Below are positions 5,724 to 26,260 of a stretch of DNA of 64,000 bases, piece by piece; within the stretch, counting starts at the first letter, position 1; the number at the start of each line of letters is the position of its first letter. The notes beneath the pieces were generated by a model. The model was not told the origin of the DNA and ran no database searches. It was given only the letters and a program-made list of their open reading frames with translations. The stretch is from Opitutales bacterium (GTDB lineage: Bacteria > Verrucomicrobiota > Verrucomicrobiia > Opitutales > PNEW01), in the NCBI GenBank assembly GCA_965197745.1, contig CBDANS010000007.1, positions 960,001 through 1,024,000 of the forward strand. The letters are read 5' to 3'. The position numbers and the translations under genes were made by a program.

Positions 5724-7057
5724 TGATCGGACCCCGTTATTCGTACCAATTTTTAAGAGAGAGAGTTACCGGGTGTTAATGGTTTTAGGATTGATGTATA
5801 GGAGTGATCTTGGCGAAGTGAGGGCGTAGCCCGAACGCGGCCAAGATCTGAAAGGATACTGACCAACTCCAGTGGACTTTTAAAGCCTAAACGCCTATGG
5901 GGATGTTCATTATTGTAGGGATGACGCCATGGTTCGATTACCCTTTGCGCTTCAGCTACGCTGAGCAACACATCAGGGTTCAGACATGAGCGTTTCGCTA
6001 TGTCGTCACTACGTTCCTCGGTACATCGCGTAAGCGGTTGTGAAACGACTCAATGAAACCGTTTGTTATTCTCGCTTTGGCTCGTTGAGGGGTCGCTTCG
6101 CTCGGTAGCCAGGGACTGCCCGAATCGCTATAGATCGCCTTGATGTTTTTGTCGGACAACCACTGCTGCACTTGATGAGCGCTGAACTCACTGCCGTTGT
6201 CACTACGGATATAGCTGGGAGTTCCCTCCTCTTCAATGGCTTCGCTAAGCACAGAGAAGACATCAGTTGAGGGGAGTTGACGAGCGACCCGGATACGCAG
6301 ACATTGACGCGTCTATTCATCGATTAAGGTCATCATCTTTAAGGGACCGCCATGGTCTGTGCGATCATGGACAAAGTCCCAGGACCAAACGTGATTGCGA
6401 CCGATTGCTCTAGTTGGAGGCCCCGTAGAGACCCCTTGACGGGGTCTGCGCTTTTTTGGGGGCTTTACTTGCAGCCCTTCTGAACGGCGTACCGCCTGGA
6501 CAAACTTCCTGCTTGTTGTCCAGTCTTCCTTTACGAGCAAGGCACGGATACGCCGGTAACCGTAGCGGGGATGTTCCCAGAACAAGGTTACAATGCGCTC
6601 GGCCAACCGCTGAACTTTCCTCCTGGCTTGCTTGGGCTGGTAGCGGTACGTTGACCCACTGAGACTGAGATAAGCACAAGCCCTCTCAGCCGTGTCTTTT
6701 ACTCCTCGCTTCTTTTGCTTTGGGCGCACCCTTTTTTTGACCGCGTTTCCTCCCTCACTTGGTTCTTGAGCATTTGATCTGCGCGCTGCTTTTTCAGCTC
6801 GGTGTTTTCTTTTTCCAGCTCTTTAAATCGCTTCGCATCGGCCAGTTCCAAATGGCCATACTTTTTACCCCAGCGATAGAAGGTCTGTTCACTTAGGTTG
6901 TGGCCACCGCAGATTTCCGGCACCGTCTTGCCAGTATCAGTCTGCCGTAATATTACTATGATCTGTTCTGTTGTGTATCTTTTTCTTTTCATTGAGGTTA
7001 TCGGGTTATCCCGATAACCTCTCACTGTTAATGATACCATTTTTTTTGGTCACGCCA
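5724..7057 (-). mobile_element. IS3-family element type A, copy 1 (degenerate)
   Basis: TG...CA termini; orfA MKRKRYTTEQI (ATG at 6992); fragmented orfB with HPRYGYRRI, WSWDF, SDNGSEF, GFIESF; two mini-inserts. Confidence 0.93.
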
Positions 7058-9718: not shown

Positions 9719-9783
9719 TGGAGTGACCCCCAAAAATCGTACCATTTACAGAGAGAGGTTATCGGGATAAACAGATAACCTCA

Positions 9784-10050
9784 ATGAAAAGAAAAAGATA
9801 CACGACAGAACAGATCATATTAATATTACGGCAGGTTGATACTGGCAAGACGGTGCAGGAAATCTGCCGTGGCAACAACCTAAGCGAACAGACCTTCTAT
9901 CGCTGGGGTAAGAAGTATGACAACTTGGAACTGGCCGATGCGAAGCGATTTAAAGAGCTGGAAAAAGAAAACACCAAACTGAAGAAGCTGCTCGCAGATC
10001 AAATGCTCAAGAATCAGGAGATGGAGGAAACGTTGTCAAAAAAATGGTGA
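9784..10050 (+). CDS. IS3 transposase OrfA
   Basis: HTH: MKRKRYTTEQI..SEQTFYRW..KELEKENTKLKKLLA. Confidence 0.9.
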   Translation: MKRKRYTTEQIILILRQVDTGKTVQEICRGNNLSEQTFYRWGKKYDNLELADAKRFKELEKENTKLKKLLADQMLKNQEMEETLSKKW

Positions 10051-10953
10051 GCCCAAAGCAGAAGAAGCGAGTAGTAAAAGATGCGGCTGAGCGAGGGCTG
10101 TGCTCGCTTTAGAGGGCTTGTACCTATCTCAGCCTCAGTTGGTCAACGTACAGCTACCGGCCCAAGCAGGCCAGTAAGAAAGCTCAGCGGTTGGCCGAGC
10201 GGATTGTAACCCTGTCCTGGGAACATCCCCGTTACGGTTACCGGCACATCCGTGCCTTGCTCGTAAAGGAAGGGTGGGCAACAAGCAGGAAGTTTGTCCA
10301 GGCGGTACGCCGTTCAGAAGGGCTGCAGGTAAAGCCCCCGAAAAAGCGTAGACCCCGTCAAGGGGTCTCTACAGGGCCGCCTACTAAAGCAACCGGTCGC
10401 AATCACGTCTGGTCCTGGGACTTTGTCCATGACCGCACAGACAATGGCGGTCCATTAAAGATGATGACCTTAATCGATGAATATACGCGTCAATGTCTGA
10501 GTATCCGGGTCGCTCGTGAACTCACCTCAACTGATGTCCTCTCTGTGCTTAGCGAGGCCATTGAAGAGGAGGGAGTTCTTAGCTATATCCGTAGTGACAA
10601 TGGCAGTGAATTCATTGCTCATCAGGTGCAGCAGTGGCTGGCCGACAATAAGATCAAGGCAATCTATATCGATCTGGGCAGTCCCTGGCTACCGAGCGAA
10701 GCGACACCTCAACGAGCCAAAGCGAGAATAACAAACGGTTTCATCGAATCGTTTCACAACCGCTTACGCGATGTACCGAGGAACGTAGTGACGACATAGC
10801 GAAGCGCTCATGTTTGAACCCTGATGTGTTGCTCAGCGTGGCTGAAGCGCAAGTGCTAATTGAACAATGGCGTCAGACCTACAACCATGAACATCCCCAC
10901 AGTCGTTTAGGCTTTAAAAGGGAATTATATACCTAAGTTACCAAAATTATAAT

Positions 10954-19514: not shown

Positions 19515-19813
19515 TTACGGTTTTGAAGCTTCGACTTCAAGTCTGAGCATGCCAAGATGGGTCATGCCGTCATCGTCTGGAGGGTGGCGATGGAGATACT
19601 CGTCAATAGCCTGTTGAAGAAACTTGTCGCGCTCACTTTCGGGAACTCGCTGTGTGTAGGGCAACCATGTTGTCCGCACCCAACTTTTGAACCCAGGGAT
19701 GTCATGGACCATGTCTTTCGGAATCAATTCAACGCGCTTTACAGCGAAACCAACTTCGGACAGCCAGAGATGATAATCAGCAGGATCATAGAAATTATAG
19801 GGAAAAGTGAAGT
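19515..19813 (-). pseudogene. C-terminal part of SAM-dependent (Tam-like) methyltransferase
   Basis: ..FTFPYNFYDPADY..ELIPKDMVH..WVRTTWLPYTQRVP..RLEVEA; 5' part lost at IS end 19814. Confidence 0.7.
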
Positions 19814-21242
19814 TGATTGGACCCCGTTTTTCGTACCAATTATTAAGTGAGAGAGTTCCCGGGTATTAATGGTTTTAGGATTGATGTATATGAGAGATCT
19901 TGGCGAAGTGAGGGCGTAGCCCGAACGCGGCCAAGATCTGAAAGGAATCTGACAAACTCTTGTGGGCTTTTAAAGCCTAAACGACTATGAGGATGTTCAT
20001 GGTTGTAGGTCTGACGGCATTGTTCGATTACCACGTGCGCTTCAGCCACGCTGAGCAACACATCAGTGTTCAAACATGAGCGCTTCGCTATGTCGTCACT
20101 ACGTTCCTCGGTACATCGGGTAAGCGGTTGTGAAACGGTTCGATGAGACCGTTTATTATTCTCGCTATCGCTCGTTGAGGTGTCTCGCTTCGCTCGGTAG
20201 CCAGGGACTGCCCGGGTCGATATAGATCGTCTTGATGCTTTTGTCGGACAACCACTGCTGCACTTGATGAGCGATAAATGGCTTCGCATGTCGTCGCTTT
20301 GCTCCTCGGAACACTGCCATTGTCACTACGAATATAGTGGGGGGATTCCCTCTTCATCGACGGCTTCGCAGAGAACCGAGAGGACCTCGGTTGAGGTGAG
20401 CTGTCGAGCGACCCGAAGGCGCAAACATTTTCGCGTATATGTCTTCGCTTCGCTTGAGTGTAGTCGCTTTCAGATCCTCGGTACATCGATTAGGGTCATG
20501 ATTTTCAGTGAACCTCCATTATCGCTACGATCATGGATAAAGTCCCAGGACCAGACGTGATTGCGATCGGTTGCTTTAGTGGGAAGCCCAGTAGAGACCC
20601 CTTGACGGTGCCTACGCTTTTTCGGTAGCTTTACCTGCAGTCCTTCTGATCGTCGTACTGCCTGGACAAACTTCCTGCTAGTTGTCCAACCTTCCTTTAA
20701 AAGCAGGGCACGGATGCGCCGATAACCGTAACGGGAATATTCCCAGGATAAGGTCACAATCTGCTCGGCCAACCGTAGAGCTTTCCTGCTGACCTGCTTG
20801 GGCCGGTAGCTGTAGGTTGACCAACTGAGGCTGAGATAGGAACAAGCCCTCCAAAACGAGCACAGCCCCTTCTCAGCCACCTCTTTTACGGCTCGCTTCT
20901 TCTGCTTTGGCTCACCCCTTTTTTGACAGTGTTTCCTCCAATACCTGATTCTTGATCATTTGCTCAGCGAGCAGGTTTTTTAGCTCGGTATTTTCTTTTC
21001 CCAGTTCTTTAAATCACTTCGCATCGGCCAACTCCAAGTTGCCATACTTATTACCCCAGCGATAAAAGCTCTGCACGCTTAGGTTGTTCCCACCGCAGAC
21101 TTCTTGTACCGTCTTATCTGTATCGGCTTGACGCAGTATTGCGATGATCTGTTCTGTTTGTATCTTTTTCTTTGCATTGAGGTTATCTATTTATCCCCAT
21201 AACCTCTCTCGGTATATGATACCATTTTTAGTGGTCACGCCA
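19814..21242 (-). mobile_element. IS3-family element type A, copy 3 (four mini-inserts)
   Basis: Both termini present; orfA/orfB decayed; inserts at 20078, 20155, 20280 and 20441. Confidence 0.93.
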
Positions 21243-21666
21243 AGGGGAAGTGAAAGTGGTATGAACAGCAATGTTTGTAAAATCATGGTAATCCTTGAAA
21301 AAGGTTGCGTAATGTATTCCCGGCTTGGCACATGTGATACACAACGACAACGTATAGTAAACCCGGACAATTGATTGATTTCAATATGACTCTAGACTCT
21401 ACAGCACACTTGGGCAATAAAGGAGCCCATGTCCAGTAGAAAGCTGAAGGAAACCTCCAAGCAATCCTTGACATGATGGTTCGACGTCGTGATAGGTGTC
21501 TGTACAGCAGGTTTATAGCAAGCCCGGCAATACAACCTAAAACACCTCGTTATCGCGGATAAAGCCGGGTCAGACAGCATTGTCAGGGTCCAGTTGTGAT
21601 TAAACTTGCCTCTACTGGGCGCATAAATTCATTGTTTCCAACACAAAGGTCACTTAATCGATATTA

Positions 21667-21849
21667 TTAAATCCACACTTAAATTCTTGCCCGTTTCCTG
21701 GCTGAAGATCACCAAAAAAAGTATGATTCCTGCCCATGTCAGGAAATTAGAGGAAAATATAAATTATTATTGTGCCGTTATTTAAGTATAACTAATTGTT
21801 AACAAGCAGTTTATTATAAGGCATTATTGAGTCCCGTTCATAGTCGGTT
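21667..21849 (+). repeat. att-like island end, copy 1
   Basis: Homologous to 28381-28583; last 36 bp identical. Confidence 0.75.
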
Positions 21850-22171
21850 TCATCGAGTCGTTTCACAACCGATTACGCGATGTACCGAGGAACGTAGTGA
21901 CGACATAGCGAAGCGCTCATGTTTGAATCGTGAAGTGTTGCTCAGCGTAGCTGAAGCGCAAGTGGTAATCGAACAATGCTGTCAGAACTATAACCATGAA
22001 CATCCCCACAGTCGTTTAGGCTTTAAAAGCCCACAAGAGTTTATCAGATTCCTTTCCGATTTTGGCTGCGTTCGGGCTACGCCCTCATTGCATCCAAAAC
22101 TTGACTTCCTCTACCAACTTAAACCTCTCCAGACTAACTCTCCCGGTGGACCAGTTTGTGTAACCCGACCA
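21845..22171 (+). mobile_element. IS3 type A-related 3' fragment with a different right end
   Basis: GF.ESFHNRLRD + 36-nt insert + CLNREVLLS; ends GGACCAGTTTGTGTAACCCGACCA. Confidence 0.8.
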
Positions 22172-24806: not shown

Positions 24807-25379
24807 ATAACGAATCAGATAAGCGGAATAGTAAAGAAAAGTCACAAGATTGACTCGTTGCTTATTATAGTATCTTTAGCTGGTAAGTATTACGATGATA
24901 AATCTGATGTAGATTTGATTGCTTATTGTAATAGGTTACCAATGTTAAAAGAAATCCGAGATTTGTTTAAAGATGATTCAATTCAAAAAACTTTAATCCC
25001 TTATAATGGATTTCAAATCCACTTAACTAACTTTGAAATTAAAGCCAGCATCATATTTTTAAATGTATCTTTTATTGAAAAATTAGTAAGAAAATATCCA
25101 AACATTAATTTCGGCGAATATAGAGAGTTGTGTGATAAATTAATTAACTCAAAGGTTCTTTTTGATAAAAAACATCTAATTTCTCCATATAAAAATCAGG
25201 TTAAGAAAATTCCAGACACTCTATAGAAAAGGATAATAGAGATGAATTACTATAATTTAAGATATTATTTCATTAAGGGTGAGATCCGATTAGACGGTGA
25301 AAGAGGAAACTGGATTATGGTAAATCAGAGAATTCATCAAAGTGTAGAGAAGCTACTAACATTAATATATCTGTTGAAT
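24807..25379 (+). pseudogene. Nucleotidyltransferase-domain protein (decayed)
   Basis: IDSLLIIVSLAGKYYDDKSDVDL resembles the hGS..SDhD motif; in-frame TAG at 25224-25226, frame continues to the IS at 25380; start uncertain. Confidence 0.55.
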
Positions 25380-26257
25380 TGGAGTGACCCCAAAAAATCG
25401 TATCATTTACAGTGAGAGGTTATCCGGATAAACGGATAACCAAAATGAAAAGAAAAAGATACACAACAGAACAGATCATAGCAATACTCCGGCAAGCCGA
25501 TACCGGTAAAACGGTATCGGAAATCTGCCGTAGCAACAACGTAAGTGAACAGACCTTCTATCGCTGGGGTAATAAGTATGGCAATTTAGAACTGGCCGAT
25601 GCGAAGCGATTTAAAGAGCTGGAAAAAAAATTCACAAGCCTAAGCGAGAAAACCTGCCATACCGAGCTAAAGAAGCTGCTCGCTGATCAAATGCTCAAGA
25701 ATCAGGTGATGGAGGAAACGCTGTCAAAAAAATGGTGAGCCCAAAGCAAAATAAAGGAGTAGTAAAAGACGCGGCTGAAGGGGAGCTGTGCCCGTTGCGG
25801 GGGGGCTTATGCTTATCTCAGCCTGAGTTGGTCAATGTCCAGTTACCGGCCCAAGCTTTCCATTAGGAAAGCTCAGGGATTGTCCGACAAAAAGATCAAG
25901 GCGATATATATCGATCCGGGCAGCCCTTGGCAAAACGGTTTCATTGAGTCGTTTTACAACCGCTTACCCGATGTACCGAGGAACGTAGTGACGACATAGC
26001 GAAGCGCTCATGTTTGAACCCTGATGTGTTGCTCAGCGTGGCTGAAGCGCAAGGGGTAATCGAACAATGGCATCAGACCTACAATAATAAACATCCCCAT
26101 AGTCCTTTAGGCTTTAAAAGCCAACTGGAGTTTGTCAGATTACATTCAGATCTTGGCCACGCTTCGCATAGATCTCTCAAATACAACAATGCTGAAACCA
26201 TTAACGCCCGGTAACTCTCTCACTTAAAAAATTGGTACGAAAACCGGGGTCCGATCA
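25380..26257 (+). mobile_element. IS3-family element type A, copy 4 (internally deleted)
   Basis: Both termini; orfA 25445-25738 with in-frame insert; several hundred bp of orfB deleted near 25885. Confidence 0.92.
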
Positions 26258-26260
26258 ATT

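Follow-up and report, generated by a model that had tools for sequence, protein, structure and literature searches.

The window, by which we mean the whole 64,000-nt stretch of Opitutales DNA that was analyzed, contains several copies and fragments of an IS3-family insertion sequence (type A), and in copy 3, on the minus strand, orfB is split by inserts of 43, 32, 45, and 36 nt at LIDE/Y, SDNGSE/F, PWQ/NG, and RLRDE/C, respectively (slashes mark the insertion points). The features are listed below; the inserts X1 to X4 occupy the sites S1 to S4.

19814..21242, minus strand: copy 3 of the type A IS3-family insertion sequence, a decayed element of 1429 bp that holds all four inserts
21014..21177, minus strand: orfA remnant, with ATG at 21177 and a premature TGA at 21016-21014 (direct sequence reading)
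20918..20924, minus strand: slippery heptamer, A AAA AAG, serving the -1 frameshift between orfA and orfB (sequence reading)
20441..20483, minus strand: X1, an insert of 43 nt that splits the GAA codon in LIDE/Y, after ATC GAT G
20280..20311, minus strand: X2, an insert of 32 nt that splits the GAR codon in SDNGSE/F, after GGC AGT G; net +31
20155..20199, minus strand: X3, an insert of 45 nt (43 nt in other copies) that splits the CAA codon in PWQ/NG, after CCC TGG C
20078..20113, minus strand: X4, an insert of 36 nt that splits the GAR codon in RLRDE/C, after CGC or CCC GAT G
19895..19939, minus strand: 10-bp inverted repeat AGATCTTGGC/GCCAAGATCT around an antisense canonical repeat core, TCGGGCTACGCCCTC
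5724..7057, minus strand: older copy of type A in which X3 and X4 are the sole inserts
9719..10920, plus strand: older copy of type A, truncated at the 3' end, in which X3 and X4 are the sole inserts
21845..22087, plus strand: type A 3' fragment that starts just upstream of X4
25379..26258, plus strand: rearranged type A remnant in which X4 is kept

The ends of copy 3, set by alignment of 37 genomic copies, read 5'-TGGCGTGACC... and ...GGGGTCCAATCA-3'. The host element has the 5'-TG...CA-3' terminal inverted repeats (TGGAGTGACC... / ...GGTCCAATCA) and, in some copies, a 4-bp target duplication (see below), within the 3-5 bp of the IS3 family; its orfA and orfB connect through a -1 frameshift at a slippery site of the A6G type, A AAA AAG, which is correctly phased. 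A Pfam search detected HTH_21 and rve_3 on the ORF pieces of copy 3, and HTH_Tnp_1, HTH_21, rve, and rve_3 on the intact ORF of a relative (type B, described below), matching the N-terminal HTH and DDE (rve) core of the family. The rve and rve_3 matches cover the insert-bearing region of the transposase, in which the presumed catalytic D, D, and E were assigned from IS3 and retroviral-integrase motifs. In better-kept type A copies orfA encodes 88 aa, and when the inserts were removed in silico from eight copies of one lineage (group b), a -1 shift at A AAA AAG produced an uninterrupted OrfAB of 394 aa.

Precise exchange of two bases at the insertion sites

Since copies without a given insert provide the exact empty-site sequence, the junctions are defined to the base, which confirms the four positions named in the preliminary description. 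The empty sites of S1 to S4 read GATG-AA-TAT, AGTG-AR-TTC, TGGC-AA-AAC, and GATG-AG-TGT. At each of them the final two bases (AR) of a GAR or CAR codon are swapped for an element of the form T[AT]CCGAG...CA, a rule that was true at seven sites: S1 to S4, the S2 site of type B, and the sites of two further inserts, X5, which sits at the slippery run of type B, and X6, which lies within orfA in a related genome (G060). X1 (net +42) is in frame yet contains a TGA, X6 is likewise in frame and carries a TGA, and the 43-nt form of X3 is an open, in-frame insertion of 14 codons. X4 (net +35) brings in an in-frame TAG, in agreement with the stop and frameshift previously ascribed to it.

The target words are N/AR/T, mostly RTG/AA/T. 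In the insert-free reading of a four-insert copy (1278 nt), RTGAAT occurs four times in the sense strand and never in the antisense strand, and three of the four sense words are the S1, S2, and S4 sites. Targeting of conserved motifs had been proposed earlier; the sites do lie in those motifs, but the preference is better described in terms of these short words. The strand and site bias of RTGAAT, together with the use of the same codons in IS3 lineages of 40-47% amino acid identity (see below), indicates that the pattern of inserts exceeds chance.

Could the inserts instead be ancestral segments of the gene, with the empty copies as deletion derivatives, or else artifacts of assembly? The greater number of filled than empty copies is the one point in favor of this idea, which we consider refuted. 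The empty sites encode exactly the E or Q of the conserved motif, whereas the inserts carry stops or shift the frame. An uninterrupted orfB is present in relatives from three other genera (59% amino acid identity) and in four intact type B copies, and identical filled junctions recur in three genomes and in the contigs of three independent DNA sequencing runs. Moreover, by the logic of the junctions, cutting out an insert cannot recreate the GAR or CAR codon and leaves GCA, GTA, or CCA at best. Judged from these sequences, the empty sites most probably represent the ancestral state; the closely related empty alleles must then be ancestral, and the inserts are therefore recent additions rather than conserved parts of the gene. 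The inserts also differ from MITEs in that their 5' T[AT]CCGAG and 3' ...CA ends are not inverted repeats, let alone ones resembling the termini of a parent IS, and that two target bases are replaced and none is duplicated.

A family of short hairpin repeats in three genomes

The inserts belong to a family of 25-45-nt hairpin repeats found in three of 201 genomes of the order that were searched. Allowing up to three mismatches, the canonical 23-mer TACCGAGGGCGAAGCCCGACATC occurs 42, 89, and 83 times in this genome (G000), G032, and G060, respectively, and 0-1 times in each of the other 198 genomes; a reversed-pattern control gave 0. The repeats consist of a 5' T[AT]CCGAG, one or more GCGAAGC-type mini-hairpins, and a 3' CA. 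Canonical elements (TACCGA-GGGC-GAA-GCCC-GAC) are 25-28 nt long, and many lie in short tandem-repeat arrays. Their stems were fully paired in 29 of 46 cases (shuffle mean 19.3, maximum 25; 1000 shuffles), with compensatory stems such as GGGC/GCCC, GGAC/GTCC, GAGC/GCTC, and GCGT/ACGC, indicating that the canonical hairpin is maintained. The canonical form is thus a short imperfect palindrome with a conserved 5' word and a kept hairpin, as in REP/REPIN sequences; the IS-borne forms have no significant fold. The family likewise shows the marks of small dispersed repeats (SDRs), which are 20-30 nt in size, dispersed, nested in other repeats, and polymorphic between close relatives.

Outside IS3 elements, none of 27 repeats tested interrupted a long ORF that virtual removal could restore, in a genome scan that used a strict start motif and so did not capture the TACCGAGCGCAGC subtype; most of the non-IS3 elements listed in it fall in short tandem-repeat arrays. 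A search for orthologous empty sites of canonical elements returned matches to a multi-copy gene family and no clean orthologue. Among public genome contigs, the exact X2 30-mer was found in one record, OY829953.1 ("MAG: Opitutales bacterium"), at 10 places. An origin of the inserts from the IS itself was rejected: only the canonical core matches the IS 3' segment (15/15 in both type A and type B; E 4e-5), and X1 to X6 give only chance matches of 7-10 nt. The inverted-repeat segment at 19895..19939 codes for the ...RATPSL... tail of OrfB, and the GGGCNNNGCCC motif is absent from three insert-free relatives of other genera.

Amplification of copies that carry inserts

None of the 37 full-length type A copies in this genome is insert-free. 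S1 and S2 are both filled in 25 near-identical copies and all four sites in five, and the totals are 30/37 for X1, 34/37 for X2, 11/37 for X3, and 9/37 for X4. Within the window, X4 is present in five copies or fragments (at about 5988, 10774, 20078, 21883, and 25974), X3 in three copies, and X1 and X2 only in copy 3. These window counts had been given correctly before; genome-wide, however, X1 and X2 are the commonest inserts, contrary to the impression from the window that they are the rarest. At three type A loci neither S1 nor S2 is filled, and these loci either carry X3 or are fragmentary. A second IS3 type (type B; OrfB about 46% identical) has the same S2 insert in 35 of 40 copies, and four of its copies are insert-free and intact, two of them with a single open frame of 415 codons (403 aa from the first ATG). 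An insert-free intact copy, which the preliminary description proposed to look for, was found in type B and not among the type A copies.

Perfect 4-bp target duplications flank six of the 27 copies with recognizable ends, all six being filled at S1 and S2; the flanks of the remaining copies are mismatched, as would fit recombination between copies. Amplification took place with X1 and X2 in position in two type A lineages, of 15 and 10 copies. Similarly, G060 contains a burst of about 40 matches of uniform length, and X1 was present in 12 of 12 inspected. The burst lineage bears X1 and X6, and among 14 copies compared none is free of both. The IS thus went on spreading after it had been hit, as was claimed at the outset.

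Recombination between copies and selection on orfB

The 14 G060 copies show three single-base differences in 1303 nt, yet the states of X1 and X6 vary among them, and X1 occurs in all four combinations with the SNP at alignment column 1104. All four presence/absence combinations were also observed for each of the site pairs S3/S4, S1/S3, and S1/S4. In chimeras of type A and type B the joint falls inside X2, and some near-identical copies differ solely in the set of inserts that they carry; G032, too, has near-identical copies of which some are empty and others filled. Taken together, the four-way combinations, the chimeras, and the near-identical copies indicate that recombination between copies explains the mosaic, and the four-insert copy 3 may itself be a recombinant. 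These patterns do not establish the sequential accumulation of inserts suggested earlier.

Comparison of orfB between the two amplified type A lineages of this genome (groups a and b) gave dN/dS = 0.055/0.383 = 0.14, with the regions downstream of S1 and S2 counted in. Across the same comparison X1 and X2 (75 nt together) differ by 0-1 nt, although dS between the two inserts is 0.9. Low dN/dS beside unchanged inserts is unexpected if a single insertion had left both lineages dead ever since, and requires either repeated insertion or functional tolerance of the inserts.

One variant at one codon of diverged IS3 elements

Each site holds its own insert variant, even among IS3 relatives of 40% amino acid identity. 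X2 is common to type A and type B (46-47% amino acid identity), X1 occurs in three diverged IS3 relatives and X3 in one type B relative, X1 and X3 both being found in type B relatives, and X4 occupies the homologous codon in an IS3 relative of 40% amino acid identity (C7:1676879-1677651). The flanks of these diverged lineages share only blocks of 6-12 nt. This agrees with the homing-like targeting noted previously, in that a given variant recurs at its codon in lineages whose divergence exceeds what ordinary homologous recombination could bridge. The loose target word is insufficient to explain one variant per site across distant lineages, and no described route of transposition or recombination accounts for the pairing of one variant with one codon at 40-47% amino acid identity.

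These observations could also point to a directed, homing-like system, in which a dedicated integrase, or a nuclease that cuts empty sites and has them copied from filled ones, installs a cognate cassette at given codons of the IS3 catalytic core. Such a system would be a hyperparasite of the IS or a host defense, and filled alleles would spread by drive rather than by hitch-hiking. In keeping with it, the inserts are unchanged or nearly so while neighboring synonymous sites are close to saturation, filled alleles are near fixation in four amplified lineages (groups a and b of G000, type B, and the G060 burst), otherwise identical copies differ by the precise presence or absence of an insert, and the repeats are restricted to 3/201 genomes, as a lineage-specific system predicts. 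Several alleles, on the other hand, argue against efficient drive, which would not leave them empty: in G060, X2 and X3 are present in some copies but not in the roughly 40 burst copies with empty S2 and S3, near-identical copies in G032 have both states, and type B retains four empty copies next to its 35 filled ones.

Neither a guide nor an enzyme for such a system emerged from our searches. Guide-like pairing between insert and flank was not found, the best ungapped identity or complementarity being 5-7 with an insert's own flanks and 4-7 with the flanks of other sites. The single Y1-transposase-like gene (Y1_Tnp) encodes 199 aa, compared to about 330 aa in relatives, and is thus truncated; no repeat lies within about 2 kb of it, and its homologues occur in 59/201 genomes whereas the repeats occur in 3/201. 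A link to a RAYT, which would be a single-copy cognate gene flanked by and co-distributed with the repeats, is not supported. On balance we consider the directed system unlikely. Put in its most specific form, and with equally limited confidence, it would be a programmed micro-insertion system that, as IS3 hyperparasite or host defense, places site-cognate 30-45-nt cassettes into E and Q codons of the transposase core by dinucleotide exchange. It would have to work in IS3 lineages without usable DNA homology, so that the cassettes would "home" without intron, intein, or encoded nuclease.

Apparent retention of the inserts in RNA, and the reading frame

The inserts have one trait of homing elements, namely the same element at the same conserved site of divergent homologues with empty alleles coexisting, but not self-splicing or a homing endonuclease. 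At 25-45 nt, and with stops, they cannot encode a protein or intein. Rfam gave no match in window positions 19700-21300 at E up to 5, and ViennaRNA folds of X1 to X4, computed under both RNA and DNA parameters, each with 20-nt flanks included or left off, gave z-scores of -1.7 to +1.5; RNA splicing and a structured RNA were rejected on these grounds.

Sequencing runs provided a further view of the expressed form. Of 22 runs, 21 contained at least part of the stretch, and only one was recorded as RNA (run X21, share 0.07). Its contigs run through insert X1 (record 14, 725 nt, no gap) and insert X2 (record 13). The sole contig of this run without insert X2 has AG and variant flanks, and is therefore a different DNA allele. 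All four runs examined consist of assembled contigs; those of run X21 are metatranscriptome contigs with zero cover on the unique flanks of this genome, and a minor processed form could escape them. S2-lacking joints in two other runs (runs X1 and X3; CT between the sides) match old S2-empty genomic copies.

A ribosome hop or frameshift as a general mechanism was rejected by a codon-by-codon check, because the hop fits X2 alone (CCG...CCA). The matched take-off and landing codons expected of programmed bypass are not common to the elements: in the required frame X1 ends in ACA and X4 in TCA.

These results bear on the possibility that the inserts are tolerated, being skipped or read through in expression, so that insert-bearing copies remain autonomous. 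The routes would be UGA read-through of X1 and X6, a frameshift or ribosome hop over X2, or an undescribed RNA excision. Tolerance would accommodate the amplification of insert-bearing lineages despite the lack of an intact type A copy, the dN/dS of 0.14 between lineages that both bear X1 and X2, and the intact OrfAB obtained by in-silico removal. It also draws on the inserts themselves: X1, X3, and X6 are multiples of three, with X3 open and X1 and X6 having a single TGA each; X2 is free of stops in either relevant frame, its CCG (followed by AGG) and CCA allowing an in-frame hop landing; and one G060 copy keeps a 309-aa frame open through X2 and X3. Against this, excision cannot restore GAR or CAR, a consistent take-off/landing pair and an RNA structure are lacking, the RNA-library contigs retain X1 and X2, net lengths divisible by three (3/6, with two expected by chance) give no signal, and the close relationship of the ancestral empty alleles makes the inserts recent. 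We therefore regard tolerance as improbable, and the removal or bypass during expression that had been offered to explain the spread of hit copies finds no support.

Discussion

The explanation that we prefer, with a probability of about one half, casts the inserts as tiny mobile repeats with site specificity that knock out the transposase; copies broken in this way would then spread both in trans and through recombination with one another. The presence of the same inserts at the same codons of very different IS3 elements in this bacterial family is what suggests a small site-specific repeat that disables transposases. In this scheme a lineage-specific family of tiny non-coding repeats (25-45 nt) would supply all four inserts, and a repeat would enter DNA precisely, in exchange for the AR dinucleotide at N/AR/T words (mostly RTG/AA/T), which in IS3 genes would be the E or Q codons of catalytic-core motifs. 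Each insertion would bring a stop or a frameshift and thereby disable the transposase, and the insert would never be removed. Filled alleles would then multiply in two ways, through movement of broken IS copies by transposase supplied in trans, and through recombination of IS copies that shuffles the sites into every combination. The sequences show the anatomy, junctions, and distribution of the inserts, the recombination, and the amplification of filled copies; inactivation of the transposase and mobilization of broken copies in trans are inferred.

Trans-mobilization, which the preliminary description had raised, is plausible for type B, for which the four intact insert-free copies would be the transposase source; for type A it leaves the spread unexplained, as 0/37 copies are insert-free and an intact source is lacking. 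Other points also weigh against the preferred explanation: purifying selection (dN/dS 0.14) beside unchanged inserts, one variant per site in distant lineages, the failure to find a candidate enzyme, and the weak RNA evidence, which comes from assembled contigs that leave the unique flanks of the genome uncovered.

Few kinds of bacterial mobile DNA are as poorly understood as very small mobile repeats, for which no enzyme is known. The closest likeness may be to the small dispersed repeats SDR4-6 of Nostoc and relatives, reportedly described by Elhai and colleagues in 2008. Both sets are non-coding, about 21-28 nt long, hairpin-forming, without terminal inverted repeats, dispersed, and lineage-specific; both are nested in other repeats, including tandem heptamer arrays and mobile elements, and differ in presence or absence between close relatives, with no enzyme known for either. 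SDR5 is described in a passage citing that work as using a specific short site, HIP1 (PMC5861425). The inserts studied here are from another phylum (Verrucomicrobiota, Opitutales) and are likened to SDRs by features and not by sequence relation; they differ in being 32-45-nt composites in transposase codons with replacement of a dinucleotide, and in having site-specific variants that recur across very divergent IS3 lineages. The RUP of Streptococcus pneumoniae, said to have been reported by Oggioni and Claverys in 1999, is a small repeat located preferentially in insertion sequences. RUP is likewise non-autonomous, favors IS elements, and was proposed to limit or rearrange them; unlike the inserts, it is 107 bp long, its terminal inverted repeats are IS630-like, it duplicates a TA target, and its helper transposase is identified.

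REP/REPIN sequences with their RAYT, the subject of Bertels and Rainey (2011; PMC3116915), resemble the present repeats in that both are short, form hairpins, open with a conserved 5' word, and lie mostly outside genes. Stem covariation, as seen in the repeats here, adds to the likeness; inverted doublets were not found here, and the lone Y1-type gene is truncated, unflanked, and not co-distributed. We know of no REPs at fixed codons of transposase genes. With homing introns and inteins the inserts share the occupation of the most conserved codons, the same site in divergent homologues, and coexisting empty and filled alleles, but they have no coding capacity, ribozyme-like structure, or evidence of removal from RNA or protein. 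Since the host gene is itself selfish, nothing forces the insert to be harmless, in contrast to homing introns and inteins. Bypass elements (T4 gene 60 and the "byps" of Magnusiomyces mitochondria) are 27-55-nt inserts in ORFs, in many of which a stop directly follows the take-off codon; here, matched take-off and landing codons exist only for X2, and the inserts have no common structure. A search of a limited literature collection (small dispersed repeats, RUP/RPE/REPIN, MITEs in transposase genes) returned no description of the pattern.

Multi-copy IS elements serve here as a natural reporter, in which dozens of near-identical targets display filled and empty states with base-exact resolution. 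This reporter yields the junction rule (AR to T...CA), the target words, and a timescale, with insert gain, loss, or shuffling proceeding at the pace of point mutation. If a directed activity is at work, it would represent a new way to silence transposases. If not, the inserts would be a clear case of selfish DNA on selfish DNA, and would also show that broken IS copies can out-multiply intact ones.

Four inserts in the orfB of one IS3 copy

The copy with four inserts (X1–X4, at sites S1–S4) belongs to an IS3-family element that we call type A, with termini 5'-TGGCGTGACC and GGGGTCCAATCA-3'. The inserts interrupt orfB as listed below in transposase-sense reading (slash, insertion point), and the case for them proved stronger than first claimed in the preliminary description. 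The window spans C7:960001-1024000 of the source genome.

Window features of the four-insert copy
19814-21242, minus strand: type A IS3-family insertion sequence, single copy, 1429 bp
20483-20441: X1, 43 nt, at LIDE/Y
20311-20280: X2, 32 nt, at SDNGSE/F
20199-20155: X3, 45 nt, at PWQ/NG
20113-20078: X4, 36 nt, at RLRDE/C

Pfam matched HTH_21 and rve_3 on the ORF pieces of this copy, and HTH_Tnp_1, HTH_21, rve and rve_3 on an intact relative. Junctions were set to single-base precision by aligning copies without one or other insert; in 4/4 inserts, an element T[AT]CCGAG...CA substitutes for AR, the final two bases of a GAR or CAR codon. The counts reported earlier for the window hold (five copies carry X4, three carry X3, and a single copy carries X1 and X2), and most window copies are of an old, diverged kind bearing X3 and X4. 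Positions 3999-28376 (C7:963999-988376) are crowded with type A copies that are old, fragmentary and nested, and with further IS3 remnants (BLAST gave at least nine distinct pieces here), in contrast to the young copies with X1 and X2, which are scattered across the rest of the genome.

Insert states across the genome

A BLAST search of the source genome with the window copy, keeping alignments longer than 1000 nt, returned 37 type A copies, whose insert states give a different picture from that of the window.

Insert states of type A copies (S1 to S4 in order; + present, - absent)
++-- : 25/37
++++ : 5/37
--++ : 3/37
-++- : 3/37
-+-+ : 1/37

No insert-free intact type A copy was found in this genome, either among the 37 (0/37) or by a pattern search, which gave three loci empty at S1 and S2 together, each of them either bearing X3 or being a fragment. 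That the IS had spread after being hit, as proposed earlier, was supported: ends could be recognised in 27 copies, six of these are flanked by perfect 4-bp target duplications, and all six are ++--, so insert-bearing elements did transpose. Matching flanks are kept in only these 6/27 copies and several copies have one flank in common with another, a pattern that suggests frequent IS-mediated chromosome rearrangement.

The further proposal that inserts are removed or bypassed during expression found nothing in support of removal. The inserts had no Rfam match and unremarkable folds; net lengths (+42 with TGA, +31, +42 open, +35, +23, +27 with TGA) are multiples of three in 3/6 cases, against two expected by chance; and a take-off and landing pair occurs in X2 only. 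RNA-library contigs read across X1 and X2 in a library that may include DNA and leaves the unique flanks of this genome uncovered, and they argue weakly against removal. The lone contig without X2 has AG and different flanks, and thus represents a separate DNA allele.

The same inserts in other IS3 elements

A second IS3 element, type B (1318 bp), has an OrfB only 46-47% identical to that of type A, and 35/40 aligned copies carry X2 at the homologous SDNGSE/F codon. Four type B copies are insert-free: two have a single open frame of 415 codons (403 aa from the first ATG) and two have orfA plus a 354-aa orfB. Six type B copies additionally carry X5, a 25-nt antisense element at the slippery A-run. 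X1 and X3 occur at homologous codons of diverged type B relatives, and X4 at ESFHNRLRDE/CLN in an IS3 relative with 40% amino acid identity (C7:1676879-1677651). Throughout there is one variant per site, X1 never occurring at S2 or S4, and likewise for the others. Among described systems, the inserts come closest to the SDRs of cyanobacteria, to REP elements and to repeats that, like RUP, seek out IS elements; unlike the inserts, none of these is known to pair each codon with a single cognate variant in divergent transposases, or to replace a dinucleotide.

Since orfB is uninterrupted in relatives from three other genera (59% amino acid identity), the empty site is the ancestral state. Empty alleles as excision products were ruled out, because cutting out an insert cannot give back GAR or CAR.

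Targeting of conserved motifs, as first described, is at least partly a targeting of short words encoding D-E, S-E and W-Q. Read insert-free, the four-insert copy has RTGAAT four times in sense and never in antisense, and three of the four are S1, S2 and S4; the S3 word is GGC/AA/AA. The junction words, seven in all, read N/AR/T, with S3 reading N/AR/A. Short-word targeting leaves the one-variant-per-site rule unaccounted for, and complementarity or identity between inserts and flanks showed no excess over non-cognate sites.

Insert turnover and recombination in sister genomes

Type A is also present, at ~90% identity, in two genomes of the sister genus, G032 and G060. G060 has ~40 matches of one common length; in 12/12 inspected, X1 is the only one of X1–X4, mostly accompanied by X6, a new 29-nt element that takes the place of AA in orfA (+27, in frame, with TGA). 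Fourteen of these copies vary at three single bases across 1303 nt, yet X1 is missing in two and X6 in one, and X1 and one SNP occur in 4/4 combinations. Near-identical G032 copies are +---, -+--, -++- and ---+, and one 5'-truncated copy is ----. Such differences between near-identical copies indicate that insert state turns over as fast as point mutation, and recombination among copies is demonstrable. Chimeras of types A and B, joined within X2, occur in the source genome (C7:1673226-1674746) and in G032, with type A 5' of X2 and type B 3'; the reverse form also exists. The 32-nt X2 serves as a portable recombination site linking otherwise unalignable IS types. One G060 copy with X2 and X3 (C2:46900-49400) has a 309-aa open frame running across both, a second frame change ~30 codons past X2 restoring the orfB frame.

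A dispersed repeat family that shares features with the inserts

The inserts have their 5' word and GCGAAGC-type mini-hairpins in common with a dispersed canonical repeat of 25-28 nt, TACCGA-GGGC-GAA-GCCC-GACATCTTCCA. Its 23-nt core (≤3 mismatches) occurs 42, 89 and 83 times in the source genome, G032 and G060, and 0-1 times in each of the remaining 198 searched genomes of the order; the reversed pattern gave no matches. The stem shows compensatory variants and is fully paired in 29/46 (shuffle maximum, 25). The IS-borne forms resemble a canonical unit with an extra GCGAAGC-bearing tail. In the public genome collection, a single record held the exact 30-mer of X2. Both IS types, though not distant relatives, also carry the following feature, with positions given for the window.

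19939-19895: antisense canonical core within a 10-bp inverted repeat, near the orfB end, coding for ...RATPSL...

Many canonical repeats sit between genes, in tandem arrays built from short units, as in AACCCTG AACCCTG [element] CCCTG, where AA is again missing; none of 27 tested splits a non-IS ORF. Such a setting is reported for cyanobacterial SDRs too. Repeats so placed (C7:1485947-1485969, C5:500000-500022, C6:562591-562613, C6:296303-296325 and others) have around them units of AACCCTG, CAATCGG or CAATCGA, or ATGCGTGT-like ones. The repeats are enriched just downstream of genes from a 90-copy family of large secreted proteins (13/63 within 400 nt); outside the window, at C7:58927-60300 and ~90 further loci, the family's ~200-aa C-terminal domain gave 98 tblastn matches, 90 extending to the C-terminal end. 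The TACCGAGCGCAGCGACATCTTCCATTCCAGG form is regularly joined to another modular repeat, GTCATTGCGAGGAGCAA[CT]GCGACG..GC (C6:654412, C7:1685393, C6:994858, C7:1584214 and many others), which suggests composite arrays from several tiny repeat families. We also observed a lone Y1 (IS200-like) transposase homologue, apparently truncated at 199 aa (C6:163146-163742); its relatives are ~330 aa, and some genomes of the order hold several of them (≤18 matches per genome).

Selection and the multiplication of broken copies

The 25 ++-- copies fall into group a (n = 15) and group b (n = 10). After in-silico insert removal, eight group b copies encode an uninterrupted 394-aa OrfAB via a -1 shift at A AAA AAG. 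Between the groups, dN/dS of orfB is 0.055/0.383 = 0.14, with similar ratios before S1, from S1 to S2 and past S2; X1 and X2 (75 nt) differ by 0-1 nt, against a dS of 0.9 across the inter-insert stretch. The two lineages thus probably split while their transposase genes still worked, each gaining the same pair of inserts afterwards on its own, or else transposase function can survive the inserts. What multiplied was a broken form in each of four amplified lineages (groups a and b, type B and the G060 burst), and an intact type A helper was found neither in the source genome nor among the G060 copies examined. A directed system, homing-like or defensive, would settle part of this puzzle and we regard it as unlikely; functional tolerance of the inserts would also settle part of it and seems more doubtful still.

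We give roughly even odds (about 0.5) to a reading in which the inserts form a family of tiny repeats, specific to this lineage and to their sites, that would disable IS3 transposases, the filled alleles spreading as non-autonomous copies transpose and, further, through recombination among copies.
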